Shown here piece by piece: positions 27,141 through 48,483 of a stretch of DNA of 64,000 nucleotides (the first letter of the stretch is position 1; the number at the start of each line of letters is the position of its first letter). Below the pieces are notes generated by a model. It did no database searches, had not been told where the DNA came from, and was given only the letters and a program-made list of their open reading frames with translations. The stretch is from positions 558,001 to 622,000 of the forward strand of contig RSEE01000002.1 in the NCBI GenBank assembly GCA_003971905.1. Direction: 5' to 3'. Position numbers and translations under genes: made by a program. The DNA comes from Moniliella sp. 'wahieum' (lineage: Eukaryota).

Positions 27141-28997
27141 AGAGAGTTATCTATCGACTATCCATGCAGCTGGCATCCTTCGCAGCCCGCTCAATATGGG
27201 CGCATGGGTACTGTTATGCATTATGGGGCGCTCCGGTCATCGATCATCTCTCTCCGGACACCGAGCCCCACATGTCGTATAGAACCCTCATCGACGCACA
27301 CGCCATTCCCACGACTGTGAGTAAGAGCCAGCACGGACGACTTGCCACGGATGTTTTCCGCGGAGTGCCAGGAGAGGACCGGACTTAACGGTACGAAGCT
27401 TCGTATCCGCGGGGCATCCGGTCTTGATAGAACTCCACATCGACTGCGGCACACCGGCTCGCAGTCTGGACAGAACATGCCGCCCTTTGCCGTTTACTAC
27501 TGTAGATTCCCCTTCCTTCTGTTGACGCCTGTTGTGATGTTACGATATATAAGCAGTCCGGTCTGAGGCTTGCTGGCGGTGATCCTCACCGCCCAACCCC
27601 GTCAACCCCCGTCTCTATACTCCCGACTTCCCTCTTCACTCTTCACCCTTATACGCTTACGAATTTACGCCTTACGTCGAGCACTCTGCAAGTCGCGGTT
27701 ACTATCAGTAGCGCTTGCTCTTCTTTAGGACTCTATCTGTCCCCGCCAACTATAGCGTACCAACAAGTGTGGTAACGCCGCGAGGAACGGAGTAATTCCC
27801 GAGATCCTGGACCCTGCAATTGGTCTTACGACTTGCGAACACGGCTCCTACCTCGGAGGGTCTGAGCTGCGGCCTTTGCACGCAGGCAGCCACCCAAACT
27901 AGAGGGTCTCTCCCTTGCCTCTACACCCGCTCGGTTCAACCAGGATCTGAAGCAGGACCTAACGTACGTAACTCTAATGCCATGTCCAAGGGCTTTCACC
28001 CCTAAATGCCTGGGTCGAGCTCCGTCTCGGGGCTCGCCCCATGTGCATGACATTTGTAGGGTAAAAATCTTCCTCGTAATAGTGTGGGAGTTTTTGTAGG
28101 TGCGCGAATACCCTGCACTTAAGGGATCCCGCACTAGGACAGTCGGGGTGACACCGTAGGAGGAAAGCTTCCTGGTCACAGCCCCCTGCGAACCCTCTGC
28201 CGTACGGGTGTGGGGCGCAGCTGGAAACGCTCCTGTATTCGCTCTTCCTCGACTCGGTTCTCGCTTGCAGCCGTCGGCTGGGCCATTACACACAGGATTC
28301 ATCGATTCATCCTCCGCTCGCAGGTCACTAGGGTCACTGTCGCACTCTGGTCCGCATATATCCTCCCAACCCTGATTGCAGCCCGCGCGGCACAGTTCCA
28401 TACTACATAACCGCGCGCAGACATGAAGGCCATGTGCTCACTGCTCATTTCTGTGCCACTGGTTGTTCAGTGTTCAACCTTCAGTCCTCTTCGCCACCAC
28501 CTCTCCTCCCTCCTCCCCCCTTCTTCCCCTTCTTCTCGCTCACCTCGTTACTTGATTATTACTCGTTGATCGTCTGTGGTTTTGAGAATAAGTATCTCCA
28601 GGTCAGAACCTTCAAGCTTCACGCGTCGCGACACGGTATTCACTTTGAGGAAGGGTTCAAATCCACGTTGGTCGGAACCGATGCAACTGGGGAGTTATAT
28701 AGTCGATCAGGCTAACCCGTAGGTGGGGAGGCGTGAATTAATCGATAATAGTACTAGGTGAAGAGGGAACGACCGTACGTATGCTTGGGGTTTTCGCGCT
28801 CCTGCGGCTAGGCGTTGCATTCCCTTGGCGCAGCTGGGATGCGTTGCTGTCATTCGCCTCTATGCGCGAGCTCACACAAGAGCATGATATGAGCGGGACA
28901 GCGAAGAAAGGAGCACTTGATAACCTGCGAGTCGGAACGGTGTTGGGACAACGACCTCTGATAGTATAAATGCAAGCTCAACTCACAATCACTGTGA

Positions 28998-29045
28998 TTC
29001 ACCACCACCACCACCAACACCAACAACAACAACAACAACAAGAAC
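28998..29045 (+). repeat. (CAC)n/(CAA)n microsatellite upstream of the OPT start
   Basis: caccaccaccaccaccaacaccaacaacaacaacaacaac is seen directly. Confidence 0.9.
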
Positions 29046-29095
29046 ACCGAGAGCACTAACACCAACACAACAAGCAAAACAAAAGGCTAGACATC

Positions 29096-31837
29096 ATGTC
29101 GACTCCTCGTTCGAACGGGCTCAACGAAGCAGATGGGGAACGGACCGACCCACTGTCCAAAGACTCAGGCCTTCCGTCCACGCCGGATGCCATCGACTCT
29201 CTTCAGCCCTCACAAGTGATAGCATAGCCTCAACAAATCACGCGACGTACAAGAACACTACCCCGTTTTCGTTCAAAAACACAGTCGAGCACGACAACGA
29301 GAATGGGATGGAAACAGAGTCACTCTTGGAAAACACGCTCTATCACAACGACCGACTGCTGAATCCACATGATGAACCCTCTGCGACACGACCCGCGACA
29401 AACGAAACCGAGGATCGGGCCAGTGGGGTGAAGGCGCCAACAATGGATATGAAAACGACACAGACGAAGAGAAGGTTCTGGACTTGGCTGATGCGCGGGT
29501 GCGCGCAATTGTGCCTAACGAAGACGACCCAGATATGCCATGCAACACGATCCGCACCTGGCTGCTTTCCATGATCCTGGCCCTCGGCCTCACCACCGCC
29601 CTCATGGCTATGGAGATCCGAGGAGACTCGACCGAACCACAGACCTTTGTGTCTACAAGTGCGGTGTTGGTACAGCCATTCACCTACTGTTTGGGTTTCG
29701 CGCTATCGAAAATACCGTACCCATCGCATTGGCCCCTGGCTTGGTTCCTCAACCCGGGCCCATTTAACCTCAAGGAACATGCGTGCGTTCCAACTTCCGG
29801 GAAGTTGCGGTTGCTGTGAAAGAGATATCTGGCTGACACGTGTGATTCTTTCGCGCAAGATCTGCACCATCGTCGCTGCGATTGCCATGGGCCCCAACCT
29901 AACCTTGCAATCCTTGGCCGGAATGTCTCAATTGACGAATGGTCAATGGACGACGGATGGCACACAAAAAGAGACCAGATTCCCACCCGGCTTCCTCTTT
30001 CTCATTTACCTCTCGACCCCATTCTTGGATTTGCCTTGGCCGGTCTTGCCACGTCTTCTCATTTGGCCTGGTGAGTTGATTTATCCTCAGCAGCTTCAGA
30101 CCAGTGCAATGTTGACGGCCTTACACGGGGTTCGGCGTGGCAACTGGAACCGTCGTCTCGTCTTCTGGATTGTGGCGACGGTCATGTTCTTCTGGCACTG
30201 GATCCCGCTATTTTTCTATCAACCTATGGCAAGGTTCGAGTGGCCGACGTGGATGGCTCCGTCCAACTTTGTGGTCAATCTATTGTTTGATTCAAAGGGT
30301 GGCATGGGCTGGTCTTTTGGTCCCTGGACTGGACTACAGTGATCACAGCGTTGAATTCACCCTTGATCGTACCGTGGGGCGCGCTGGTCAACGTATTTTG
30401 TGGCTTCGCTGTTGCCATGTGGGTCATTGCCCTCCCGATCTTTTCACTAACAAGAACCTAGCGGCCTGCATTCCCTACGCGGTTATGAACGTGATTTGGT
30501 ACCCACGGCTGCATGCCACCGACATGCATATCAACCCCTTGCCCCAAGACATGAATCTAGATCTCTCCCAATTTGATTCGCCCGACCCACCCCAGGGCTA
30601 CTTTTCTGCCACACGTCATGTCCTGGGCGTTTTCCTATGCTGCCTGCACCGCCTTGCTCGTGCACACCGCTTTTCCTGGCGGCGACCTACGCCGCTGGTG
30701 GAAAGTGTCCAAGGTAGCTGATTCTCCTGATCCCCACGCCCGCCAACTCGCCCGCTACCCGGCTGTTCCCACCTGGTGGTACCTGTGTTTATTTCTGGTT
30801 GCCTTTCTTTGCCATCCCCATGGTGCACGTGTACCACACCTCGGTACCGGTTTGGGCGATTGTGCTTGCCCTCGCGCTGGCTGCAATCTTCATTGTTCCA
30901 GTGGGCATTGCATTGGTCGGACGTCGGTGGAGCTGAAGTGTGGAGCCCTTGGCGACGTTGATTGCTAGTGCTTCTCTGCCTGGGCACACGACCATCCCCG
31001 CTCTTTCAGATATGCTGCGGGGGAAGCATCACACAAGCGATGCTCTACTGTGGCTGCTCCAAACTGGCAGTCTACTTAAGATCCCACCACGAACCACCTT
31101 CTTTGTAATCGTGGGAACCCAATTGGCCTGCTCAGTGTTGCAAAGTGGAATCTGGGTGGGGTGGAGTGATGCGCTGCAAATCAGCATCATTACCAAAGCG
31201 CGGGTTGTAGGTTTGTACGATCCCATATATTGGACTGGCGTCGGGCTTCACAAGAACGGCTTCCTGCATCAATACCAGTGGACTTTGTACTTTTTCCTTA
31301 TTGGCGCAGTCGCGCCACTGCTCTTGTACCTTGTCGGACGCATGTCCCCTCGCTTGAATCACTTTGCTCACCTCCGCTCGCTCCATTGGCCGCTCTTCTT
31401 TGGTGGTGTATCGCAAGTCTCACTTTATTCACGATTTGCTGGACCGCTGGTTTTTGGGGGGCTGTCACTCACCTACTGTTCTCCCGTCGTCGGCAGTGAA
31501 TTATGGATTGCAGTACGTCCACTACTCTATCTTTCCTTTGTATTGTTCACGGGATGAATGTGGCTAACTCTCTTCTCTAACAAAATCTCTGGATCGGCTA
31601 TCGCCAGGATGAATTACGTTCTCTCTGCCGCCGCTTCTGTGGGAAGTTCGCTTGTTCAACCATCATCGCGGCCATGGAGTATAGTACGGATGACACTGAC
31701 ACCCGCTTTTCCCGCTTCGTCAACCACCTGAACAACCTTGGGCCCCAGAACGACTACGGCGATACCCTGGAAAAACTCTGGTCTGGAACGACACGCTTTT
31801 TCCCAACAGGAACGCGCCTCCCAACGCGGTCTAGTTG
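29096..31837 (+). CDS. Oligopeptide transporter (OPT family), divergent copy
   Basis: VRAIVPNEDDPDMPCNTIRTW, NPGPFNLKEH, LIWPGELIYPQ.L, DPHARQLARYPAVPTWWYL, KIPPRTTF and HWPLFFG. It has introns and several frameshifts, so both ends are approximate. Confidence 0.85.
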
Positions 31838-33162
31838 ACCCCTTGCCAATCCAGCCGGAGACCGTCGGCAGATGTCAGCGTCAACGACGGAATCCCTTTT
31901 CCCTGCCTTTCCTTTTCCATATGCTCATCCATTGCAATCGCGATATGGCATCTGTCGGGATCAGACTCACTTGATCACGTTCTTTGTCACCAAGTTGTCT
32001 GGCCCCCTTGATTTATTCTAGGCCCTGTTTTCCCCCTTTGGATTGTGCGCCCTTTGCCCTCCACGGCTGCGGGGTTGGTATGGGATAAAGTATGATCGAT
32101 AAACCCAGGTTTCCGGAAGAAGTTCACATCCCTCTCGTTACATAGGAAAAAGCCGTGCCAGAAAGTTCCCGGAACAACTGGCTTAAAAGCACGGCCATAA
32201 ACTTAATTGCGCTTGGCCATTATCCATATCTCGCTATAATAGAAGTACTTAGCTTAACCTCGTGTTTGCGCCAGGGGTATAAATCCGAGAAATTTGCACC
32301 TGTTTAATCCTATGTTCGATCAAATGCATTTTTGGATGGGTTAGGGTGTCCATTCTGGCCTGCGGTCACATCAACTTTCGTTGTCGTGGCCTTAAACGTT
32401 GCGCTTCAAACTTGATGCCCCTTCCGCACCCAGGGCCACACATCCACCATCTCTCCTGTGGCCACCTTCTCCTCCAAAGCAATGGGTTAGGTTAGGGGGT
32501 GCAAGGTCTGATGACCAGTGTAAGCATAAAAACGTACCGCCAAATCGAAAATGCGACGCCGCACATGCTCGACCAAGTCGGCTTCAGGAACACCGTCAAC
32601 AGAACTTGGATAAACTTTTTGACACACGACCGCTATGGGCCAGAAGTTGTCCCGGGTCAAAAGTGAACTCTTCCAGACCTTGAGGGGAACAAGCCGCTTG
32701 CGGACGGAAAACCAAGCTTAAATCCTTATTGTTGCCGATCCTGCTCTCGGGATGCAGACAAACCCATACTGCGAACCATTTGTACCATTTCTGTCAGTGG
32801 TGATAGCGAGTGACGACGGAGAAAGACTGACGGTAAATATTATAGCCGTGTGAAGTCGGGATAATACCAGCAGATTTGGCTGATGCAGAACAAGGGAAAC
32901 AGACAGAGAAGCGAGAAAACGTTGGCTCTAGTGCGTCTGAAGAGTAGCCAGCGAAAAACGGACGTGGGCCAAATGTGCAATAAAGTAGATGCACTGTATA
33001 TCAAGGAGAAGATCGATGTGCTCTCTGGACTACACTCGCTTCGTTGCACCAATTATATAAGAGCGTGCATGGGCGACGACTAAGCCCCTTGTCCGGTGCT
33101 ATTACCCCGAGTTGGATTCGCTTGTGTTGGAGCACGTTGTCATCGCTGCTGAACTAGTGGCA

Positions 33163-33208
33163 TTAGTAGTAATAGAAGTAGTAATAGTAGTATAGTAGTA
33201 ATGATAGT
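33163..33208 (+). repeat. Imperfect (AGT/AAT)n microsatellite
   Basis: tagtagtaatagaagtagtaatagtagtatagtagtaatgatag. Confidence 0.7.
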
Positions 33209-35981
33209 CGAGCAGGACTCCCTCTCTACTGATGAACGTGATGCCTTTTTATCGATTATCGCAGGAGCGCGATTTCTTCCCCGCTAAGGCGGACAAACTA
33301 GCCAACTAGAATGCAGAGAACCCAAACCGACTTCATCGGGCTGTAAGCTGTACCATTCTACACACAATCTCCTACCCCCATGGTTTCATAAGAACCAATA
33401 ATAGCGAGACGTTTCTCATCGCTTTGGCGCGGCATGATGCATGAAGTCGTTTCCCAGCGATAAGAAAGACCATGACCGAGCATGACGACGTGCGCACAAA
33501 ACATAATACATGTGTCTCTTACATACGGCAATGGTCTGTCCATGTTACATGTTATGAGAAACGCCAGCACAACTCACAACTCATCGATGCTCAACAAGTA
33601 CTTAGGAACTCACACTGGTTCGAAATGATTGCGCTTGCCGATGAGCGGGGCAACTTCACTGTCGGATCAACGTTCAACCGAGAGCATCGCTAACCAGAGG
33701 GTCTCACGAGCGAGAAAACGTGTCGGGTTGTTTGATCGAGGAGCGCCACATCCTTGCTGAACGTTGAACACTGGGATGCCCTCGTCCTAGACCGCGGCAG
33801 AAACATCTCATCGAAAAAACCACGCTGTCGCTGCGGCATTTGTTGGCCCGCGTATTCTCCACGGTGCCGAAGGAAGACAACTGGCGAGCATATATATGCC
33901 TTGGGTCTGCAACATCAGTGCCAGGTACACTCAAGTCGTACTCAGTACAGTACTGCCGCCCTCAAAACCCTCCTGTTTGAGCGCAACGTGTGCTGGGTCT
34001 GTTTCACTGCGACCATTTAGCGCTTAGCTACGCTCTCAAAACGTCTCAAAAGATTCAAGGTGCGAGTCAACGGGTGACTCGTGTGCGGACTCGGTACTGA
34101 ACTCAGTACACTCACTGTCCTATCCCTCACGCGTCATATATTGGCACGTCTTGAATTCAGTTGTCGGCTTCAACACATCGATCGATCATTGGTATCAGAT
34201 AATCCCCCCGTCCAATTGCGCGGGTGCGGTATCTTCCCGCCTTCTTCCCCGCAGTACAACCGGATGGCCGCCTTTCGTTTTAGTGGAGACGTCCAAGCCG
34301 GCCTCGTTCGACCTCCGAGCCGACTCTTCCGACCCCCGACTCGGAGGACGAGCACGGTAACCGAGGTAAGGCCCACCGACCGGGCCTCACCACCGTCTTG
34401 ACTACTTGTGCGGACACCAGCAGTGGTTTCCCTGCGGGTTTTCCCTGCTGCCGGCGTAGGTACCGCCCGCGTCACGCGGGGCTGCACAGGGTGGCGGTTG
34501 TCGGCCCCGCGCTTACGGTTTCGCGATGCCTGTGATCATCGATCATCATCTTTCCACGAAAAGCACTGACGCTCTAACTCCAGTATGGTGGGATTCCCAG
34601 AGCCGCACGCGCTCTTCTTAGTTCCCTCGTTCCCTCATTTACCGCCGGCAGTCCACGCACATCACTCGTTTTGTTTCCAGAATTAGGCGTGCAATACGCG
34701 TGCATGCGTGCGTCGTTGGGTTTAGTGCGTGCCCTCTCCTTTCCGGAATAGCAGACGTTAGTAGTAGGCGTTAGAAAAGTTTTGAATCTCTCCTCGCTTG
34801 TTGCTTAGTATGCTCCGACCCCACCCTTTTCGTTTCGGCAGCTTTACGCGACCGAGTTCCATCCAGATAAGAGCCGGGGCCGAAAAAGCAGCGCACGGAT
34901 CACCTCGGTCGGATTACGGAGGAGGCTTTCGAAGCGACCATCGCTGCACACTGAGGTTGCAAAGATAAGGCCTAAGATGGAAGAGAACGTGTTTCGCTTC
35001 CACAAACGGCGTACATATGTGGATTTAGTTTGTTCAACGTTCCGATCGTTCGGCTCGATGAGCCACAGCCAGTGGAGCCAGCCTGACATGGTTGTCTAAT
35101 CAGGGAGACAGAGGGGAAGTGGGTGGGGGCGGCTTTGGGGGTTGCCCGCCCGCCTTTGGCCTGTCGGAGCTGGGCGGCCCTGGTCCGATACGCCCACGGC
35201 TCTTCCCACGAGGTTGGTGGGGCCGCTGACGAGCTGGCACGGCACACTAGTTCCGTGCCAAGCATAGTGTCACCCTTTCTTCCGCCTCGTCCGAATGCGG
35301 TGGCGGAGGGGGGGCTGGTCAAGCTCAACTCATGGTGGGGCCAGCGGCATCACGCACCGAAGTGCTCGTGTACGTGTATCCGCCGGACGTGGCCTCGGCT
35401 AGGAGGCGCCTTGGCCAGGGCTCTGAACTCTGAACGCATACATGTCGGTCGTTCTCTTGGGATAGCTGATAGCCTTGCGGGCGGGGAAGCCGGCAGTGGC
35501 GGAGCGCTGACGTGGCGCTGCGGGCTGTCACATCATGGACGTGTCCTGTCATGTGATGCCTGTCACATGTGCGTCACAGGGGACGCCCCCTGTCACACTT
35601 CAGTATGAAGCGGAAGCTTGAAGCTTGAAGCTTGATAGCCACCCGCTCAGCCCGGCGTCGCACCGGGGCGCATCCCGCGCACCAGGCACCCCCTGGCAGC
35701 ATCCCCCACCCCCTGGCAGCGCAGCAAAAATGATCGATGGGAGAGGGACCGATTAGGGAACTGGCGACTGCTTGGGCGTAACGCGTAATTAGGCCTTACC
35801 CGCAGCTCGCCGCTGTCTCGCATCTGCTCTGAAATTTCAACCGGACGCCGTGCTGGGCCTCCGCCACACCCGCCTGTCTGCCTTTTTCGGTCTGCCTGCG
35901 CGTCTGCTTCCCTGCCTTGGCTCGCCGCCCCGCCTCCTCCCGTCTCCCACAGCCGCCCCTCTGCGGCTGCCCACCACCGCC

Positions 35982-37953
35982 ATGGCCAGCCTCGTGTCGC
36001 ACCTGCACGAGCCACCGCCATCCTACTTTGCCGCCCTCCGCCCCCCTCGCCCTCTGTCTCCGCCTCCCCGTCCGCCTCTCCTTCCGCGTCCGACTCCGAG
36101 TCCGATGCCCCCTCCTCCCCGTTCCCCGCCTCCTCCGACCCACGCCCCAGCACCGCCCCAGCGCCAGCGCCTGCGACACCCGCTCCTTCTCCACCCACCC
36201 GACTCCCACCGTCCTCGTCCCCTCCTCTTCCCAGTTCCAGCCAGCAGCGCTCCTCTGACCGCCACGTTCGTCGTGCCTCCCACCACCGTCTTGCCAACAC
36301 CGACGACTCTGCCGCATCTGAGCACAGGCCGTCTCGTTCGTCTGTTGCCTCCCTGCCATCGGCCCGCACGCAGCCCCCACGAGCCTCCATCAACAGGCTG
36401 CCCCCGCTCCCCTGGATGCCGGTCAGGAGATCAGGGACGAAGGGGTGCAGGATCGTTTCCTGTCGCGGAACCGCCTAGCGATTCAGCCTTTGGATTCACC
36501 AGTGGCGATGGCGAAACTGATCCGGAGCATGAGTGGGACGGGGATGCTGTTGCTCCCTTTTCGCGCAGCAAGCAAAGAGAGAAAGATGCGAAACGAAAAG
36601 AAGAAGACAAAGAAGCACTGTTGTTCTTATTTTTGCTCTACCCGCTTCGGTTGTTGGCGATTGTACCTGAAGTTCTTGCGGCCCACACATTGTTGCGCAA
36701 GAGCATCATCCTCGCCTTGTCCCAACAGGACTTGCGGCGTGTTGGTTTACGCCGAGATCCCGGTCCGCTGGAACTGTTCATGGCGATTTTCTGGGTACGT
36801 TTTTGAGTCGGGGGTCTGGGGTGCCTAGGTGCCTACTCCTTTTTTGTACTTGTGTGTATGCGATGAGCGACGAGCGACTGACCGACCGAGGCGGGATGTT
36901 GGTGGGGTGCTTGTGTATTCGGTACAGATCATGAGTTCTGCCTTCCATGCACTGTCGTTTACGACACTTTTACTGCGACGCTGGCTGTTGTACTATGCCA
37001 TCTTCCCTTCGCTCGTGAGGCTGGTACTGCTACAAGCGCTCTGCTGGACCTTGGTGCATACCACGCTCTGGTGGTTTGGTCCCAACCAAGATTTGCCCGC
37101 TTGGATCGTGATTAGCGTCACGACGGCGTTTAGCGACATTGTGACGCGTTGGATGACGAGCAACATTGCCGATATGCCGCCTCCTTCCTCGCGTGCGCTC
37201 ACGGCTAGTTCGCAAGGCGTCGGGTTTTGGGACCGGAGAGGACGGACGTGGAAGAAGGGTATGCGCTGGTGATCAAGCTCATCATGGGCGACCCGATACA
37301 GCATGGGGAAGACGGGTGGGACGAGGAGCAAATGGAAGAGATGGATGGGTGGGCCGAGACAGGTGCAGGCACTGGTACTGGTGCCTCCCCTTCCGGTTCC
37401 CCATCTTCATCCTTATCCCCTTCCCCCTCCCCACCCCCAACCTCATCCCTCCGCACCCAACAAGCGCGACAACAACAACACCTCTTATCTGCATTGACGC
37501 GCGAACTGTTCCAAGCCGAAACGGAGCTGCATAATTTGCAGCACGCCAGTCCCGGTGCGTGGGACCGGTCCGAACCCAGCGCTCGACAGAGCCGGGTCAG
37601 TGCCGCGCGCGCTCAAGCCCAAGCCGAGTTGACCACTACCATCCAAGCGATCCAAGCGGCCATCCGACAAACCACGTCACCCTCGGCTCGAGGCTTGGGA
37701 TGGGACCGAGCAAGCGAACCTACTCGACTTCCTCAGGGGGAATGCGAATGGTCCCGGGCTGAAGAAGCGGACGGTTGTTCCTTCTGGGCGGGGTAAGACG
37801 GCCCAAGTCCGTTCGGACCGGCCGAGGGGATTGAAGCGGCGTATGATGGGCCGGAGGGTGTTCCATTGGCACGTTGCGCTGTTGCGCAACGGATTGCCCG
37901 TTGCCCTCTTGAGTTTTGTCACACTTTGGGTACTGCTGATTGATGGCATGTAA
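35982..37953 (+). CDS. EOS1: Eos1-family ER membrane / N-glycosylation protein; intron ~36795-36928
   Basis: MASLVSHLHEPPPSY.., RLLAIVP, ELFMAIFW|..SAFHALSFTTLLLRRWLLYYAIFPSLVRLVLLQALCW and WMTSNI match the Eos1 family. The C-terminus RRVFHW..TM is frameshifted. Confidence 0.75.
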
Positions 37954-38473
37954 CATGCAACATATGCACTAAGGTTTCCGCAGTTCCTCTTCCGAGTTTC
38001 TAGGCGTTTCTAGGATCTTCCTACGTCCCAGGTTTAGGTTTGGGCTTGGGTTTGGGCTTCTGCTGCATCAGGTTCGTAGGAGGAACAATGGCAGTTCTGG
38101 ATTGCCCCATCCTTTCTCTCTCAGCGGGGCACAAGGGGTATACAGTAGTAGTAGAGTGGCGGGGCTTGAGGGGTAGAGGAGCGAGAGATGGGATGGGTGT
38201 TGATTGGCCTGGGACAGTCTACAGAAGCTAGGAGGGAAAGAGCAACTGACGCAATGGGAGACGAAGCGCTACGACTCGTCTGTTCCGCTTCCTGTTGTCC
38301 AACTCCTGTCCAGCCACTGTGGTGAAAGGCGACGCCACCTCGCCCAAGCGGTGACCGTCACCCGTCACGTGCCCGCACGGAAGCTTTTAATTTAGTTTTC
38401 GTTCTGACGGCGGGGGGCTTGTTCGTGTTCTTTTCTCTTAGCTGGCCAACCGCTTCGCCCACCACCACCCCCC

Positions 38474-41400
38474 ATGCTTCTTCTGTCGCACCGGTTGGCG
38501 CGCTTGCGCCCGGCGAGGCCATTGTGGAAGCATGCTTCGCCTGTGCTTTCTCGACCCTGTCCTTCCCCAGCTCGTGTCCTTCGTTCCCCCCCCTCCCCCC
38601 CGCCTGGGCACGCACGCGCCACTCACCACCTCCTGCTCGGCCAGCGTGGCAGCGGCCCAGGTCCGCTCACCCCCCAGTCAAATACCGCCGGCTCAGCCAG
38701 CACCAACATATTCTCCAACGCCCTGATATTACATTGGGTCGACGCAGTTGCAGCCGATGCAGCAGTGGGTCGTCTCGTCCCGCGGGGACCTGGAAGTTCG
38801 GGAGATCCGTGCCGCGCCTGGGTTCCAGAAGATTGTGGATGAGATCCTGGTGAATGCGGCGGACAATAAGGCGCGAGACGGGACGATGAGTTACTTGTCT
38901 GTCGACCTCGATGCAGCAAAGGGCACGATCACCATTGAGAATGACGGGGCAGGGATTCCGATTGAGCAGCACCATGGTGAGGGGGTGTGGATTCCCGAGC
39001 TGATTTTTGGCAACTTTATGACATCGAGCAACTACGATGACTTGGAAGCCAAAGTGACCGGTGGACGCAATGGGTTTGGTGCCAAACTGACCAACGTCTA
39101 CTCGACGCAATTTGACTGCACATCGTCTCGAACGGAAAGCCTACACCCAAACTTTTAGCAACAACATGCAGACCACTTTGCCGCCGAAGATCAGCCCGAG
39201 CCGAGCCAAGCCCTTTACCCGCATCACCTTTCACCCTGATTATGCGCGGTTTGGCATGACGGGCTTGGATGAGGATGCGTTGGCGTTGCTCCGGAGGAGG
39301 GTGTACGATTTGGCGGGTAGTGTGGGGTGGAGGTACGGTTGAATGGGAAAGCGTTGGACGTACGTGGATTCCGTTCCTATGTGACCAAGTACCTTACTTC
39401 GCCCGATGCGGCTGGCAGTGGTACGTGCGCCAGTGGCATTCGAGTCGGTGAGGTGGATGGGAAACGATGGGAGGTGGCGGTGGCGCCATCGCCGCAAGGG
39501 CAGTTTGACCAAGTTTCCTTCGTCAACAACATTGCCACCACCTCGGGCGGTCGACATGTGGAGTACGTAGAGCGCAAGGGGTAGAAGCCGTGGTGGAGAC
39601 GGCAGCGCGGAAGAGCGAGGGACACCTCAAGACGGCTCTCAAGGCCAACATGTGGCTCTTTCTCAATTGCCAAATTGTCAATCCTGCATTTGAGTCCCAG
39701 ACCAAAGAGAGCTTGACCACGCCTGCCTCCAAGTTTGGCAGCCATGGGCTCCCTCTGCCTCCTTTGTCCGATCGCTCGTCAAGTCGGACATTCTTTCTCG
39801 CGCCCAGGCCCAAGAGGCCGAACGGCTGCGCAAGCAGGAACAGCGCAAACTCCGCAAGACCGATGGGAGCAAGACGCAAAGGTACGGTTTTGTTTGTGTT
39901 TCCCTTGTGAGGCTGATGAAGCCGGTAGCCGCCGGAACGAACCTGACCCTTGTCCTTTATCTTTACTCTTTGCTTTGAACCAACAGGATCATTGGCATCC
40001 CCAAGCTCGAGGATGCCAACAATGCCGGCGGGCCCAAGAGCAGTGAATGCACCCTGATCCTAACCGAGGGTGACTCGGCCAAAGCGTTGGCTGTGGCGGG
40101 TCTGACGGTGGTGGGGCGGGACAACTATGGTGTTTCCCCTTACGAGGCAAGGTGCTCAACGTGCGTTCGGAAGCGGCCGAAAAAGTCGCCAAGAACCCAG
40201 AAATTACGGCAATCAAGGAAATTTTGGGTCTCAAGCACGGGGTGACATACAAGTCTACCGATTCGTTGCGGTACGGACGGGTGATGCTGATGACGGACCA
40301 AGATCACGATGGGGCTCACATCAAAGGTCTATTGCTCAACTACTTTGCGCTACTTTTTACCCTTCGCTCCTGGCGCTGCCCAACTTCCTTGTCCAATTCA
40401 TCACACCCATCATCCGGGCCTCGCAGGGCAACAAAAAGTCGACTTTTTCTCCATGGATCAATATGCCTCTTGGGCCGCAAGAACGAACGACGCGCGGATG
40501 GAAGATCAAGTACTACAAGGTACGTCGTGCTTGGCCCCTTCTGATAGCGTGAGGCAGGAAACGAATTGACAGGGGCATGTTTGTGTTTGTGTATTGTTTT
40601 GTGTTTGCGTTGCACATGTGTAGGGTCTCGGTACCAGCAACTCGGCCGACATTAAGGAGTACTTTCGTCGGATGGATACGCATGTCAAGCCTTTTGTTGC
40701 GACCAGTAAAAGGGAGCAACTCGCTGGACCTTGCCTTTAATCGGGATCGTGCTGAGGACCGCAAGAGCTGGTTGGACCAGTACGATGGAAAGGGGTGGAC
40801 CTGACCCTGCCGACGGTGAAAGTGGAAGATTTTGTCAACAAGGAGCTGATTCAATTTTCTCTTGCCCACCTCAAGCGGTCCATCCCTAGTTTGGTCGATG
40901 GTCTGAAACCGGGACAACGCAAGATCCTCTTTGCGTGTTTCCGTCGTGGTCTGTCGCCCAAGGACGAAGTCAAGGTGGCCCAGCTGGGCGGGTACGTTTC
41001 GGAGCACACGGCCTACCATCACGGCGAGGCGAATCTGAACGATACAATCGTTGGGTTGGCCAGCACTTTGTTGGTGCGAACAATATGAACCTGTTGATGC
41101 CCATTGGTCAATTTGGTTCGCGCGCAACGGGCGGGCAAGACGCAGCGGCGGTACGGTACATTTTTACCACTCTTAGTCCTATTGCGCGGACTGTGTTTCC
41201 CGAAGCGGACGATGCATTGTTGAACTACCTTGATGAAGAGGGACAAAGTGTGGAACCCGAGTGGTACATGCCCATCTTGCCAATGGTGCTCATCAATGGT
41301 GCCGAGGGAATCGGAACAGGGTGGTCCACCTTTATTCCCAACTACAACCCGATTGATGTGATGGACAACCTAAGCCGCTTGCTCAACAAGGAAAAGATGC

Positions 41401-42308
41401 GGCCGATGGTACCCTGGTTCCGGGGTTCCGCGGTCCCGTACGTGTTGTGGACGAGAGCAAGTTCCAGACAGTGGGGTTGGCGAGCCGGGTGCGCGGGAGC
41501 AAAACCAGTTGGGAAATCACCGAGTTGCCCGTCCACAAGTGGACAGCGACTTACAAGGCGTGGCTGGATGGCCAATTGGTCTTGGCGGATCCGTGGTTGA
41601 AAGATTACCAAGAGTACCACACCGAGTCGCACGTCAAGTTTGTCCTCCACCTCACGCCGAGCGGGGTGAAGGCCTTGGCCCGATCAACCTCGCCCGAAAC
41701 GTTTTTCAAGTTGGTTTCGAACCATTCGACCAACAATATGGTCCTGTTCAGTCCTTCGGGGCGAATTGCTCGGTACCAGTCGCCACTGGACATTCTGCAC
41801 GATTTCTTTGGAGTGCGACTGACGTTTTACCAGCGACGCAAGACGTACCTTGTGCAGCGGCTCGGAGCTGAGGTGGCACGACTGGAAATGCAAGCGCGCT
41901 TTGTTCAGCAGGTGGCCGACGGGCAACTGCAAGTTTCCGGACGGAAACACGAGGCCGTGGTAGCCGACTTGAGCCAGCGTGGGTTCTCTCCCGAAGCACC
42001 CAGCTACCCGGAAGGGGAGAGCAAGCGTACGCGCGCAGCAGCCAAGCGTTTGACTATCTGTTGAACATGCCGCTGCGCTCGCTGACGCAGGAAAGGTGGC
42101 GCGGCTGCAGGAGCAGTGGCGGAGAAGCAGGCGTTGGCTGCGCAACTGGAGGCGACCTCGCCCGAGGATATGGCGGACCGACCTGGGCGAGCTGCGCACT
42201 GGTGCGCACTGCTGCGACAGGACTTGGAGCAAAACTAGCACAATGGATGCAAGCAGAATGGTGCTGGCTATGAGCGTGTGCCTTGATAGGAGATGGAGAT
42301 GGAGATGA
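38474..42308 (+). CDS. TOP2: DNA topoisomerase II (type IIA), short form without C-terminal domain; introns 39882-39986 and 40520-40623
   Basis: YRRLSQHQHILQRPD, DEILVNAADNK, TSSNYDD, GGRNGFGAKL, TEGDSA, PLRGK, MTDQDHDG, YYK|GLGTS, RSIPSLVDGLKPGQRK, YHHGE, catalytic RYIFT, GIGTGWST and IWRTDL. The stop position is uncertain. Confidence 0.93.
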
Positions 42309-42376
42309 GATGGAGATGGAGATGGATGGAGATGGAGATGGAGATGGAGATGGAGATGGAGATGGAGATGGAGATG
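42290..42376 (+). repeat. (GAGATG)n hexanucleotide microsatellite
   Basis: About 14 near-perfect GAGATG units. Confidence 0.95.
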
Positions 42377-42824
42377 GGGAGGATAACAAGGGGCGATGGT
42401 TGGGTAGGCCAGGAGAGAAAGGAGAATATACTCGCTGGCTGGCGTGTGGAGACGCATGCATGCATGCGTGTGGGCAGGGTCTGGCCGGAGCTTAAGCAGG
42501 CTTAGACAGGCGCAGTGCCCATCGCGTGGGCCCTCTCTTCCCTCGGCCCAGACACTGCCCCAGCGCCCCCGCCGCTGCCCGCATGTAGTAATGCCTGGCC
42601 TCGCTACCGTCGTCTGCGAACGGTGCCTCCCATCTCGCCAGTCTTGCTCCGGCCGTGTACGGTTCTGCTCGCTACTACAGCCTCTCTCGCACCCACCCCC
42701 GTCTCTCTGCCCCTCCTTCCATCCTCCAAGCGTCTTTGCGCAGTCGCAACGCCTCCCTTCTGCACTCCCCACGGCGCCGCGGTTCCTCTTCTCTGCCCCA
42801 CCCCCACACACCACACCACCGGCC

Positions 42825-44675
42825 ATGCTCAGCTCCAACGGCGCCAGCCCCGCCCCCTTGCTCGCTCGCCCCTCCCTCCCCGGCGTCAGCGCCCTAATGC
42901 TGCTGCGCCTCCGCCTGACAGTTTGGATCCCACCCGGTTCTGCCACCTCTCCAAAACACGCATTCCCCACCGCCATACGCTGCTACAACCTACCCTCACG
43001 TCCAGCCTTCTTCCACCGGAGCCTTCAACTGCAACGCTATGAGGACCTTTCAGCCACTCCTTGGGCTGGCTTCTCCAATGAAGCCAGCACGCCGGGATCT
43101 TTCGTCACTCCCTTTGGCCCAGAGAACGCTCTCCTTCCCTTTACACCTGGAACGACGGAAGAGCAGGGCAGAGCTTGACAGTAGCTGCAGCAGCTACATT
43201 AATAGCGGCAGAGGGAGCAGATCATGCCAGAGCCACAACTGGCAGAGACATGGGGGGCTTCTATTTCCGAGCCCCACTTGGCCCTCCCCCACTCCCACCC
43301 CGACCCGACGGGTCCAGCTTACCCTACCCCCCGTCTTTTCTTCCGTGAGTAAACTATACGGTAGTCTTCGCCCGGCCCTCTTTTACCGCGGACGGATTTT
43401 AGCCTCCCCTGGTTCGCACTCGGTGCTTTGGACCACGGTAGCATCTGTTCTCCTCGCGATCCATGGGGGAGGACTCGATCGAAGAAGAGTGATGTGGACG
43501 CCCCCTTCATCAATGTACTGATGGCTATTCAACCTCCGCCTACCCCAGTTTTGTCCCTAATCTGCCAGGACGCCTCCATAACCCTCACATCTCTGCTATT
43601 ACGCCAATATCCTTCACTCGACACCACAGGTACGGTCACAACAGACAGAGCAGGCTTCCGATACGGCGGCATCCCCTACTGCAGCATCGGTGCCCACAAC
43701 AGTGTTCCCTGCAGCAACGGGCCCCACAACAGAGTCCCCTGCAGCCCCACACCCAGCCTCTGCAGTCGATTCACTCTCTGCTTCCGTGTCAGGAGATGGA
43801 AGCGCTGTGGACAAACCGGCTGCTGGTCGCGTTCCTGGGATGAGGACGATACGGCAGAAAAAGTTCACGCGCAGCCGCACCGGCTGTCTGACATGCCGCA
43901 ATCGCAAGATCAAGTGTCCACAAGATGGAACACCGTGCACGAAATGTGTTCAGGGCCGCCGTTCTTGTTTTACGGACCGAACCCTCCCCCGGGGCGACGG
44001 ACCAAAAGCGGATGAACCGAGAACTCAAGGCTCTGATGGCTTCGGCCCAAGGACAAATCGCTCAAAGCAGGCAATCAGCAAAGTAGCCAAATCCGCCAAA
44101 ACAGGAAAAGCAGGCAAAGCAAACAAAGCGGTCAAAGGAGACAAAGAAGCCAAGGATATCGGGCATCACACTCTTCCCTTATCCTCCATGGACACAGGTC
44201 ATGGCTATGCTACGAAGATGTACTACGCTGTTCTGCCTTGGGGAAAGTCTCTTCCTGGTTTGACCAACAGTAAGGGTCTGTCTCCCCTCTCGGGTACCAC
44301 ATGGACGGACCCCCAGGCCGACATATCTCCAACGCGGCACCAATCAGGAAAGGAATCTGACTTGGATTGTAACACCCTCAACACTCTATCCCTTTCCACC
44401 CTCCTCCCGCTACGGTGACCAGTGCATTTGGCAACAGATATTTTCAACACGGCCCCCGCCTTCCCTTTTTCATCAGAACCGATTACAGTAACACGTCTTC
44501 CATTTTCCGGCGAAAAGGGGTGGGGTACGCAGGTGCTGGCTGTTATCTAGCATCCAGTCCGACCACAGGAACCAGAGCCTCAGGAGATGAGAATCACCTC
44601 CAAAGGATGAACGAGAAGGCACCCCTAATCCTACCTCTCCTGCACATGAGGAAAGTGACGATTCGTCTACCCTGA
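42825..44675 (+). CDS. Zn(II)2Cys6 fungal transcription factor (cluster at ~43860-43970)
   Basis: KKFTRSRTGCLTCRNRKIKCPQDGTPCTKCVQGRRSC is a C-x2-C-x6-C-x6-C-x2-C-x6-C cluster. The flanks are low-complexity and frameshifted, so the boundaries are uncertain. Confidence 0.75.
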
Positions 44676-45939
44676 GACTTGACTGAGGTACGCTGGCCCT
44701 TTGCGATTGCCACTTTTCCCCGGCTTTTGTCTTCATTCTTTCTTCGCCCATTGCTCTTCCACGAGCAGTACCTTACAAAAGAGTGTCTCCTTTTTACATT
44801 GCTGTCGGCACTGTGCGCTACATTCATATTATCCTGTCGTCCTATCGTACCATGACTCTGTCGGCTTCGTCCAGCACGTACTACTACGCACTGTATGTTG
44901 TGACCAAATCGAAGACTGACTCCCCGCCGCCTGCTTATCTGCATGCGGTTTCTTTCTTTCGGGTGCACGCATAACTGCATACCGGTAGCTTAACTGGCGC
45001 GGTAACAATTTCCCCGTGCTTGACCGTTTTGACCACATCGCCTTCATCGTTTTGTTCTTTCACTTGTCCCTTGTCTTTTGCCTTTTGCTGTGTTACTGTG
45101 TACTTTCTGTCGAAAAACTAAAAAAAAAACTTGTGACTATATCCATAATTCTCTCGCGCCCTTACTCTTCCTCCCTTCGGGTCCTTACGCTCCATGCGAT
45201 ATACTTTTCAATTGTATCGCCCTAATATGGGCCTATTATGTTGTCTCATGGCCTCCTCACACCTCGTATTTGGGCCTGCTCGACACGTCGAGAGCAATGA
45301 AGGTACTGTAGAACTGGGTGCAGACTAACTTAGTACAGCGCACATTCTCCACTCACCATACTCTCAACAGTTAACCGCGGTTTGGCCTGTGGAACCCAAA
45401 GACCACACCTTGTCTTCTCCCCTCTCTGGGGCCACACAAGTATCCACAACACATATTCATAGTAAGTTGTCTAGATACCAATTTTTGGTACAAACCCCGA
45501 AGTGAGGTTACTGTTTTGGGGGCACTTTTTGAACGTCCAAGGTGAAAAGTAGAGGGCGACATGAGGATCCTAAGCTGCCAAGCGTGTGCTGGCTCTCTTG
45601 CTAGAACCAGTGGTGGGTTCGGTCGTACCTCTCCAAAGGCCCAAACGTGGCCTTAAGGCCTCATGGCCGTCATTGCCCTCATGGCCTCAATGGCACTTTC
45701 GGAACTCGGGAAGATCGATGATCGATGATCGATAATCGATAATCGATGATCATACAAGCTGGATTAGGTATTTGGTCGACCAGTCGCGGATCACGTGATC
45801 TGACGATGACCTGGAGGAGCGGAGTTTGCCCTTCTCTTTTCCGCCTGATTGTTGAGGCTGGTTTTTGGGCGATTGGAGAGCGCGTTCGGCTAGGTCAAGC
45901 AAGTGGTGCGACGCCACCATCGATTTGTGGATTGGAGTG

Positions 45940-47088
45940 ATGGGTACGTCTGGTTCTTGTTCTTTCTTGCTCTTGTTCCCCTCTCCCGCTGCCTCCCAAT
46001 CCTGTTCCCTCTGCTTATTCTGTCCTACTGACACATTCTCTCGTTGCGCTTGCGTTTGTTTGGTTTGCTGGAACCAGACTACCAAAACCGTGCGGGGTAA
46101 AAGGGAGCCGGCGTGGCCGGCGACTCGGAGGCGAATGTGCATCGCCGTGACCGGCTGCGCAAGTTAGCGTTGGAGTCGATTGATTTGAGCAAGGTACGTT
46201 TGGGTTTCAGTGGGGGTTCCTTTCCTGTTCTGGGCCCTACTGGCCCTCTTTGCTGGCACATCCGAATTCTTTGATTCTGACCCATGGTTCTGACTTGTCG
46301 TTTGGCTGTCGTTTGGCTTGTGTGCGACCCAGGATCCGTACATTCTGCGCAACCATCTAGGCGGGATCGATTGTAGGTTATGTTTGACGCAGCACCCCAA
46401 CGAAAACTCCTACCTCGCCATACGCAGGGGAAAAAACACCAGACCAACCTGGCCATGCGCGCTGCCAAAGATCAAAAAAGCCAAGCCCGGTTCACGCCGC
46501 AACTGCTGTTGACAGACCGAGACCGACGGCAAGACAAGCCCAAGAAAGTGTTTGTCAAGATTGGCAAGCCGGGATTCAGCATCACCAAAATCCGGGAACT
46601 TACACCTTTGCCTCCGGTAGGCGTGACCGAATCGGAATCGGAACGCGCTGTGCGTCTGCAACAAGGGGGTCGGTTGGGCTTGTTGTTCAAGATCCCCTTA
46701 CCACAAATCAAACCGGGTGTTCGCCCGTTGTACCGCATCCTCTCCTCATTTGAGCAGCACATTGAGCCGCAAGATCGCGCATGGCAGTACCTCGTCGTGG
46801 CGGCTGAGCCGTACGAGAGTATTGCATTTAAGTTGGAATCGCGTGAGGCGGATCGGACGCCGTTGGTGTTAACCTCCTCGGCTGCTTTGGCACGAGCAAA
46901 GCACGAGACGGGTACATGGTCGTATTGGGATCCGGACACTAAAACTTACAGTACGTTTTCTCCCTCTTGATCATCCTTTTTGTTCTTTCTTGCCGTGTCC
47001 TTTGACTGGCTGCAACATGGTTAGGACGCGAGTGCTGACATTGGTTGTTGGGTGCTGCAGCTATCCAGGTGTGTTCAAGCGTTCGTGA
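45940..47088 (+). CDS. PRP11: Splicing factor 3A subunit 2 (SF3a66/Sap62); introns 45944-46077, 46194-46332, 46951-47060
   Basis: The spliced product reads MDYQNRAG..RRDRLRKLALESIDLSK|DPYILRNHLGGIDCRLCLTQHPNENSYL.HTQGKKHQTNL, KIGKPG, FEQ..E and QYLVVAAEPYESIAFK. Confidence 0.93.
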
Positions 47089-48483
47089 AGGATGGATGGA
47101 GGCCGTTGGTACCGTATTTACCTTTGTGCATATTCGTTTAGTTGTGCGGGTGGGTATGTGCGGCCGTGGTCGTAGGATGCGGTTTTGCAAGCGAGACAGG
47201 CAAGGGGGAAGTTCAAGTTGAACTTCAATGCTGCCAGTTGAACTCAACGTTTAGGCTTACACATACTTGCGTGTGTTCATATTTCGGGCTATTATGATCG
47301 ACCGGCGCACATCACCCTTTCTGTCGTCGACCCTCGAGCACCACATGCTTGCTCCATCACTATATCTCCATCACTACCCCACTCCCGATTGCCCTGACGA
47401 GGTAGGCATTGACAGTGTGACAAAAATAGAGGCCGCATGAACTACACCAGCATATTTGGCGGAAAAATCGACCCTGAGAGACACAAGACACATGTACCCA
47501 AAGACCGGAGACGAAACGCAGCACGCACAACCCAAGTCTTGACGTATTTATATACACAAAGAGCCACGGGGTCAAACACTTCGTCGTCAGAGTCCATCTT
47601 TGAATCCCATATTTTTTCTCTCGTGTTGAGCTCTACTATCGTTCTCTCCCCTCTCCTCCTGGTTGGGCTCATTCAAAAGGACGCACTGGATCTAAAGTTG
47701 GACGATATGGGGGTAACGTGGACCTGGGGGACTTAGACACCACTGAGACGCATGGAATAATTGGGAGTATAGGAGGCACAGGAGCGGAAGGGTATCGCAC
47801 CCTACCCATTCTAGCCATCTCTTCATCCACAAGACGACATTCACACCGAATAGCATCACATTTTGCCAAGGAAGAAAACGACTCCCGAAGTGGGAATGGA
47901 TTGGTTCCCCTATGCTATACTACTTCACTGTTGTGAACTGGCACAAAATTGTGCATGCCTATGCAACTCTGCTCTAATAATACCGGAACAAACATGGCGT
48001 CTTGCTGTGTCCCAACTTGAGTCTACATTCCCCATGGAACCCACTCTAATGACAGTATTCTGTCCGTATGCACCGTGCACCGTGACTACAACTCAAAGCA
48101 GACTGAGTGGCCGCAATCCAAGCAATAGCACCAAGCCCCACTTAACTAACCCGCATTAACGACGCGTCACGTGGGGACCTAAACCCCAGTCGGGTCCGTA
48201 CGACAAACGCTACTAGCATTCTTGTGCAATATATGCATGTACCACCAGTCATCAATCTATCGCATTGGAACAGACTATGGCACCGTTCGGCTGTAGTGGG
48301 AAAAACAAGTTGACGTTAACATTGATAACGTGCCTAATCTGCTCGTGAGTCATTTGCCGAGAGCGGAGGATATGGACAACTCAAACGTGGGAGAGCTCGG
48401 CACAGAGAGCAGGAACCCGTCACTGAAAACAAGGATTGACAAAACAAAAGCCCATACAGTGACAGTGTGGTAGCAGGAGAGCA

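Follow-up and report, generated by a model that had tools for sequence, protein, structure and literature searches.

The stretch of DNA considered here, called the window below, covers 64,000 nucleotides of Moniliella sp. 'wahieum' (contig RSEE01000002.1, positions 558,001 to 622,000, or C2:558001-622000, in assembly GCA_003971905.1, 69.5 Mb in 223 contigs), and carries a topoisomerase II (Top2) gene distinct from the ordinary nuclear TOP2 of the same genome. It is probably a nuclear gene for a type IIA topoisomerase dedicated to mitochondria, derived from a TOP2 duplication in one branch of the Ustilaginomycotina, because the genome holds a second TOP2 and because the window gene encodes a full core, lacks the tail, opens with a presequence-like start, and has been kept in two other lineages. 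A mitochondrion-dedicated Top2 paralog in a fungus had been proposed in a first-pass annotation of this DNA, and the second TOP2, the tail loss and the presequence-like start lend support to the proposal.

The gene, its relatives and the nuclear TOP2

The window gene is a real Top2 gene with a full catalytic core. GHKL ATPase, transducer, TOPRIM, winged-helix (WHD), tower and C-gate domains are all found in one chain (Pfam searches of window pieces and orthologs, alignments to PDB structures, and the spliced model), and the 13 catalytic motif patterns tested are all present, including the N-box, ATP lid, QTK, EGDSA, DxD and RY motifs, as had first been reported. By sequence, the protein is a member of the eukaryotic type IIA (Top2) family, with a predicted ATP-dependent decatenation activity.

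Protein searches returned 42 matches among 2914 candidates, and 5335 among 5640, of which the best 120 were considered. Among the matches listed, three clusters, all of Logan proteins, are clearly closer to the window protein: P0001 (four members), P0063 (three) and P0002 (one). P0063 (exon 1) and P0001 (exon 3) belong to a single ortholog (A), their members lying on contigs of equal size, and P0002 (exon 3) to another (B); orthologs A and B are respectively 73% and 63% identical to the window protein. No further cluster of the family was found among the best 150 HMMER matches in 1.84 billion representatives at 50% identity, under which full-length members are possibly hidden, and at 1200 bits the P0001 cluster was the sole one to stand out; P0219, the following match, was rejected as a member, its score being due to a duplicated domain. 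In a metagenome scan, one of 383 pattern matches was a relative, 29% identical and outside the paralog family, and a viral scan gave seven TOP2 loci at 31-40% identity. The paralog family looks narrow.

The spliced gene model comprises the following features:

38474..42238, + strand: Top2 paralog gene, ATG at 38474, stop TAG at 42236-42238, two GT-AG introns
38474..38679, + strand: presequence-like N-terminal extension of about 68 codons, with five Arg, one Lys and no Asp or Glu in its first 30 residues, and one or two assembly frame breaks inside
38680..39881, + strand: rest of exon 1, GHKL ATPase and transducer (PF02518 and PF00204 on P0063); exon 1 is 70% identical to P0063
39882..39986, + strand: intron 1, 105 nt, GT-AG, phase 2, after KTQ-R; in P0063 the open reading frame (ORF) also reaches an intron at this KTQR site
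39987..40519, + strand: exon 2, TOPRIM with EGDSA, PLRGK, DQDHDG and KYYK (motif patterns, Pfam)
40520..40623, + strand: intron 2, 104 nt, GT-AG, phase 0, between KYYK and GLG; the P0001 and P0002 ORFs both start at the first Met past this point
40624..42238, + strand: exon 3, C-terminal part of TOPRIM, winged helix, tower, coiled coil and C-gate, no tail; 71% identical to P0001
40954..40959, + strand: two-residue insertion in the winged-helix domain, common to the own nuclear TOP2
41154..41159, + strand: catalytic Arg-Tyr codons (DAAAVRYI, motif match)

Both introns had already been recognized as spliceosomal. The end of the gene, in contrast, differs from the initial description, in which homology stopped at IWRTDL and the gene extended to 42308: after one more frame break the protein continues as HWCALLRQDLEQN up to the TAG at 42236-42238, with 11 of 13 residues identical to P0001. 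A weak splice donor at 42202 was ruled out because the sequence downstream of it is conserved as protein.

The absence of a C-terminal domain, first argued from a next gene lying within about 600 bp, is confirmed on other grounds, because two relatives have matching stops: in the alignment P0001 and P0002 end where the window gene does, 18 residues past the last W..[DE]L, versus a median tail of 274 residues in 225 proteins, which also makes a hidden downstream exon unlikely. The spacing itself is not confirmed, as the 117-aa ORF at 42825-43178 has no Pfam match and may be non-coding, and the first recognizable gene is an ORF at 43582. P0001 ends opposite residue 755 of yeast chain 3L4J (757 residues), where the folded core stops, and the window protein ends near yeast Top2 residue 1175 in the structure alignment. 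The hallmark of nuclear Top2, a long charged C-terminal domain with a nuclear localization signal (NLS), is thus missing from a protein that stops at 42238. Nor were gyrase features seen, the single chain ending at the C-gate, and P0001 and P0002 giving no match to PF03989. The window protein is neither a nuclear-type Top2, nor a gyrase, nor a viral enzyme. Compared with Top2 of Saccharomyces cerevisiae (PDB 4GFH, 3L4J; PF02518, PF00204, PF01751, PF16898, PF00521), it has the same single-chain ATPase-TOPRIM-WHD-tower-C-gate organization and all catalytic motifs, but it lacks the tail, carries an Arg-rich leader of about 70-90 residues before the point aligning to yeast residue 3, and is encoded by a second gene beside an ordinary TOP2.

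This ordinary gene, whose existence the first-pass annotation presupposed, was recovered in a PF00521 profile search, which detected three TOP2 loci in the genome: the window copy, C37 and C92. The last two are the two haplotypes of the nuclear TOP2, with an acidic start (MSDESDF) and a 325-codon tail rich in Lys, Ala and Asp, so that the window copy is not the sole TOP2. The window protein is 53-56% identical to this nuclear TOP2, and the split between them is old, because their fourfold sites are only 44% identical over 200 codons. Trees place the nuclear TOP2 in the Ustilaginomycotina, apart from the named genera sampled. An ATG 123 nt 5' of it (in frame in C37, out of frame in C92) was considered as a start and is provisionally read as untranslated, since gaps of 3 and 5 bases separate the alleles there. 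The gene found 5' of the nuclear TOP2 (L012:1389-2400) may encode a divergent NAC-alpha-type protein.

The N-terminal extension and the predicted role of the paralog

The first ATG (38474) gives the N-terminus initially described, with no in-frame Met upstream, and the absence of acidic residues noted there holds in all three frames across the stretch bridging to the beginning of the ATPase (K-Y-R-R-L-S-Q at 38680). The ATG at 38513, which opens a different frame, was ruled out as the initiation codon, since it is the 38474 start that the ortholog matches. The first 30 residues have a net charge of +6, no acid and a hydrophobic moment of 0.73, and the extension resembles the presequences of the same genome's Hsp60 (+4, 0.65) and Pol-gamma (+5, 0.70; found via PF18136, the blank obtained with PF00476 in the assembly being a sensitivity miss). 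Taking AUG starts, the N-termini of the own TOP1 (two copies) and TOP2 are acidic (-3), and TOP3 starts at its domain, with a stop upstream. In ortholog A, the ATPase of P0063 is preceded by 91 residues, Arg/Leu-rich and nearly acid-free; the first 30 of them have a net charge of +5, no acid occurs before position 51 and no further Met before 160, and homology to yeast 4GFH begins at residue 83 of P0063. An in-frame extension, a candidate for the presequence first proposed, is therefore seen in this error-free relative, whereas in the window the core is reached from the extension only via one or two frame breaks near 38590-38660 and the frame is uncertain. When compared with each other, the extensions of the window gene and P0063 show a weak resemblance in two of the three frames (p 0.049 and 0.006; 1000 shuffles). 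A basic composition poor in acids was seen for 19 of 162 distinct TOP2 N-termini, and at least four Arg for five, P0063 being one of the five; as a chance level, 6 of 1455 local ATG-opened frames of 40 or more codons pass the same composition criteria, the window gene included. These properties suggest that the extension is a mitochondrial targeting presequence.

Several observations weigh against this interpretation. The composition criteria are simple and were set after the sequence had been seen, GC-rich DNA favors Arg, Pro and Ala, the window extension is Pro-rich with an uncertain middle frame, and the N-terminus was recovered for one relative only. A cox1 search of the assembly gave no match, mitochondrial DNA (mtDNA), the presumed substrate, being absent from it. 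ESM Atlas searches with either N-terminus returned no usable match.

If the protein does reach mitochondria, the precursor (about 1190 aa) would enter the matrix by the presequence route (TOM/TIM23), be trimmed by MPP, and then dimerize. It would work by ATP-driven strand passage without gyrase-type supercoiling, decatenating and unknotting the products of mtDNA replication and recombination and relaxing transcription supercoils; type II enzymes are described as relaxing, decatenating and unknotting DNA with ATP (excerpts of PMC4266802). Loss of the tail might be explained by its function in nuclear import and chromatin binding rather than in catalysis, the tail of human TOP2A being dispensable for catalysis and carrying the NLS and a chromatin tether (excerpts of PMC6429393). 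The sister copy (C37/C92) would have kept the tail and the nuclear task, in a split like that of vertebrate TOP1 and TOP1MT.

Could the paralog act in the nucleus instead, or not act at all? A specialized nuclear or dual-located tail-less enzyme (such as a meiotic enzyme, or one imported in a heterodimer with the tail-bearing Top2), whose leader would be a low-complexity stretch or a basic nuclear signal, is compatible with the tails of at most 30 residues seen in 9 of 220 TOP2 proteins outside the family, with the complementation reported for yeast Top2 cut at 1209 (excerpts of PMC6429393), and with the 19 basic and acid-poor N-termini counted above. However, most of these 19 are Lys/Ala-rich with a low moment, and only the five just mentioned reach four Arg; the window protein stops near yeast residue 1175, short of 1209, its core has no 7-residue window with five Lys or Arg, and its leader matches the own mitochondrial presequences, all of which make a nuclear or dual location unlikely. 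Decay of a redundant copy into a pseudogene in this strain has to be considered in view of the frame breaks, absent from the first-pass annotation, which number about 20-25 along the 3.55 kb of the gene and vary with the template (exon 1 has 10, exon 2 has 4-6 and exon 3 has 6-9), and of the gene's single copy in the assembly versus two each for TOP1 and TOP2. The breaks are nevertheless best read as assembly errors, because their rate matches that in the essential TOP2: with one common template, 17 were counted in the window gene (5.1 per kb), 18 in the C92 TOP2 (5.3 per kb over 3.4 kb) and 5 in the C37 TOP2, and between the C37 and C92 alleles there are 26 gaps, none longer than two bases, besides 36 substitutions in 3369 aligned bases. 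In addition, the reading of the window gene requires no in-frame stop, all motifs are intact, its end branch measures 0.21 versus 0.16 for the ortholog, and the lack of a second haplotype copy extends to its flanks (judged from 43300-48300, since repeats swamped the search on 28000-38300) and to TOP3. A pseudogene is on this evidence very improbable, and a functional mitochondrial enzyme is retained as the preferred interpretation.

Independently of this question, Hsp60 was observed at at least four loci (L060, L061, L062 and L065, on C20, C13, C59 and C1) with slightly different presequences, and the Cpn60/TCP1 family at about 30 loci in the assembly; these copy numbers suggest that the genome is a hybrid or has been duplicated, or that several haplotypes are present.

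Evolutionary origin

The paralog clade sits on a long stem of about 1.0-1.2 changes per column (about 1.0 versus 0.31 for the nuclear copy in a careful tree), and because of this stem FastTree and quick trees were weighted below careful trees. In careful LG+C20 trees, the paralog falls inside Fungi, both with 23 rows and no viruses (100/99) and with 22 rows including two viral and four protist-type tail-less TOP2s (99/99); in the latter tree it lies within the Ustilaginomycotina (92/96), apart from the four protist types. Two insertions support a fungal origin independently of trees. The spacer after QRK has 14 residues in 288 of 313 proteins (a count that includes redundant cluster members) and 16 in the own TOP2, a length found in seven others, of which five are the paralog family and two have unrelated sequence; a three-residue insertion before WEV is common to the paralog and Ustilaginomycotina. 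Because the shared insertions and the two careful trees agree, the best reading is that the paralog arose by duplication of a fungal TOP2 within the Ustilaginomycotina lineage. Forcing the paralog and the own TOP2 into one clade was not rejected (p 0.49), with a gain of 14.7 log-likelihood units (lnL) over the free quick tree.

Other results run counter to such a duplication, beginning with the long stem itself. FastTree put the clade outside Fungi, beside a protist protein (96), one quick tree at the base of eukaryotes, and another as sister to Fungi (93). Forcing the paralog outside Fungi cost 12.9 lnL (approximately unbiased (AU) test, p 0.18), and grouping it with an outside tail-less lineage cost 30.2 lnL (AU p 0.054), neither being rejected; furthermore, the nuclear TOP2 has its introns at other positions. 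An acquisition of the mitochondrial Top2 from a giant virus or from a protist tail-less mitochondrial lineage, in place of a fungal duplication, would fit the two deepest of these placements and the two AU values, and viral TOP2s are also tail-less (L032-L036, 1153-1268 aa). Like the window protein, the Topo IIA of Nucleocytoviricota is a single chain without a long tail (excerpts of PMC9752973; L031-L036), but it is only 39-42% identical to it, and has neither a presequence nor the fungal insertions. Identity in the careful-tree set is highest with the own TOP2 (53%, versus 42-44% for the protist types), the two insertions are shared with the own or subphylum TOP2s, and the careful tree with both outgroups nests the paralog in the Ustilaginomycotina, without branching with viral enzymes and separate from the protist lineage. 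The gene also has introns, ordinary fungal neighbors with no viral context, and a third-position GC content (GC3) of 0.68 versus 0.73 in the own TOP2. A sideways origin is hence quite unlikely; its giant-virus version, put forward as an alternative in the first-pass annotation, is disfavored by the insertions, introns and careful trees, while the borderline AU value gives no formal rejection.

The trees contained no named kinetoplastid, red-algal or Dictyostelium sequences, the protist stand-ins being P0280, P0339, P0331 and P0350, and the viral locus L037 was excluded. These four stand-ins are tail-less TOP2s with presequence-like starts, forming one clade (99/95) with long branches outside the sampled nuclear TOP2s, perhaps an old protist mitochondrial TOP2 lineage. 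Two viral-looking TOP2s, P0034 and P0037, contain homing-endonuclease/intein domains (PF05203 and PF05204).

How could a fungal TOP2 have acquired a presequence? Arg-rich stretches precede the usual Met in some ordinary TOP2 models, over 75 aa in Tilletia maclaganii (NCBI model P0377 and P0009; two of four cluster members), 37 aa in 4 of the 12 members of the Malassezia sympodialis/equina cluster (P0147), and 40 aa in P0130. They give a hint of a possible dual start; most other TOP2 models seen have no such stretch, and automatic gene prediction lengthens frames in GC-rich DNA. Tentatively, the single ancestral TOP2 of smut-related fungi might have been dual-targeted via an upstream start codon, as the models of T. 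maclaganii and of two Malassezia-type clusters hint, and then split into nuclear and mitochondrial genes, the mitochondrial copy changing fast and being now the cell's only presequence-bearing topoisomerase, possibly acting on mtDNA that is multipartite or catenated to an unusual degree. Were this true, Top2 use in fungal mitochondria would be far wider than recognized, and the upstream stretches of these relatives suggest where to look in other fungi.

Comparison with known systems and genomic context

Dictyostelium has a dedicated mitochondrial type IIA enzyme. Dedicated mitochondrial TOP2s are also described in kinetoplastids (excerpts of PMC4266802 and PMC6514783) and in Cyanidioschyzon merolae (CML330C; excerpts of PMC4166229), where, as here, a separate nuclear gene encodes a eukaryote-type Top2 beside the nuclear Top2; the match concerns the presumed way of working. 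The window paralog apparently has a separate, fungal descent, since it did not group with the four protist-type tail-less, presequence-bearing TOP2s. Vertebrate TOP1 and TOP1MT are nuclear and mitochondrial duplicates with a faster mitochondrial copy (excerpts of PMC10081982 and PMC2770673), but these enzymes are of type IB. A truncated TOP2B reported from bovine heart mitochondria (Low et al., cited in the excerpts of PMC6514783), disputed in later work, is also a tail-less Top2, although it is a shortened product of the nuclear gene, unlike the tail loss encoded in the gene here.

No fungal mitochondrion-dedicated TOP2 was found reported in the open-access literature, subscription journals and supplements being outside this scope. 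The excerpts of PMC9752973 mention extra eukaryotic Topo IIA copies and do not contain the string 'fung', and a 2024 review of fungal topoisomerases (PMC11432948) does not contain 'mitochond'. The paralog may be the type II enzyme for mtDNA that has so far been hard to find in fungi, and an independent case of the protist design (presequence gained, tail dropped), forming a type II parallel to TOP1MT. An organelle-only gene can be deleted or tagged with the essential nuclear enzyme untouched, so that the role of Top2 in fungal mtDNA would become directly testable.

The neighbors of the paralog are ordinary fungal genes, SF3A2 (Pfam) being a further recognizable one downstream:

36829..37953, + strand: upstream neighbor, EOS1 family (Pfam)
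42290..42380, no strand: (GAGATG)n microsatellite 3' of the stop, non-coding for the paralog, with many copies genome-wide
43582..44418, + strand: downstream neighbor, Zn2Cys6 transcription factor ORF (Pfam), the first recognizable gene 3' of the paralog

Farther upstream, an OPT oligopeptide transporter gene (PF03169, about 28550-31950) has counterparts at 24 or more places in the assembly, with 79-89% identity at the DNA level, which represent a large transporter expansion, and a repeat of about 640 bp (about 32160-32800), possibly a solo LTR, has at least 15 copies at 87-93% identity.

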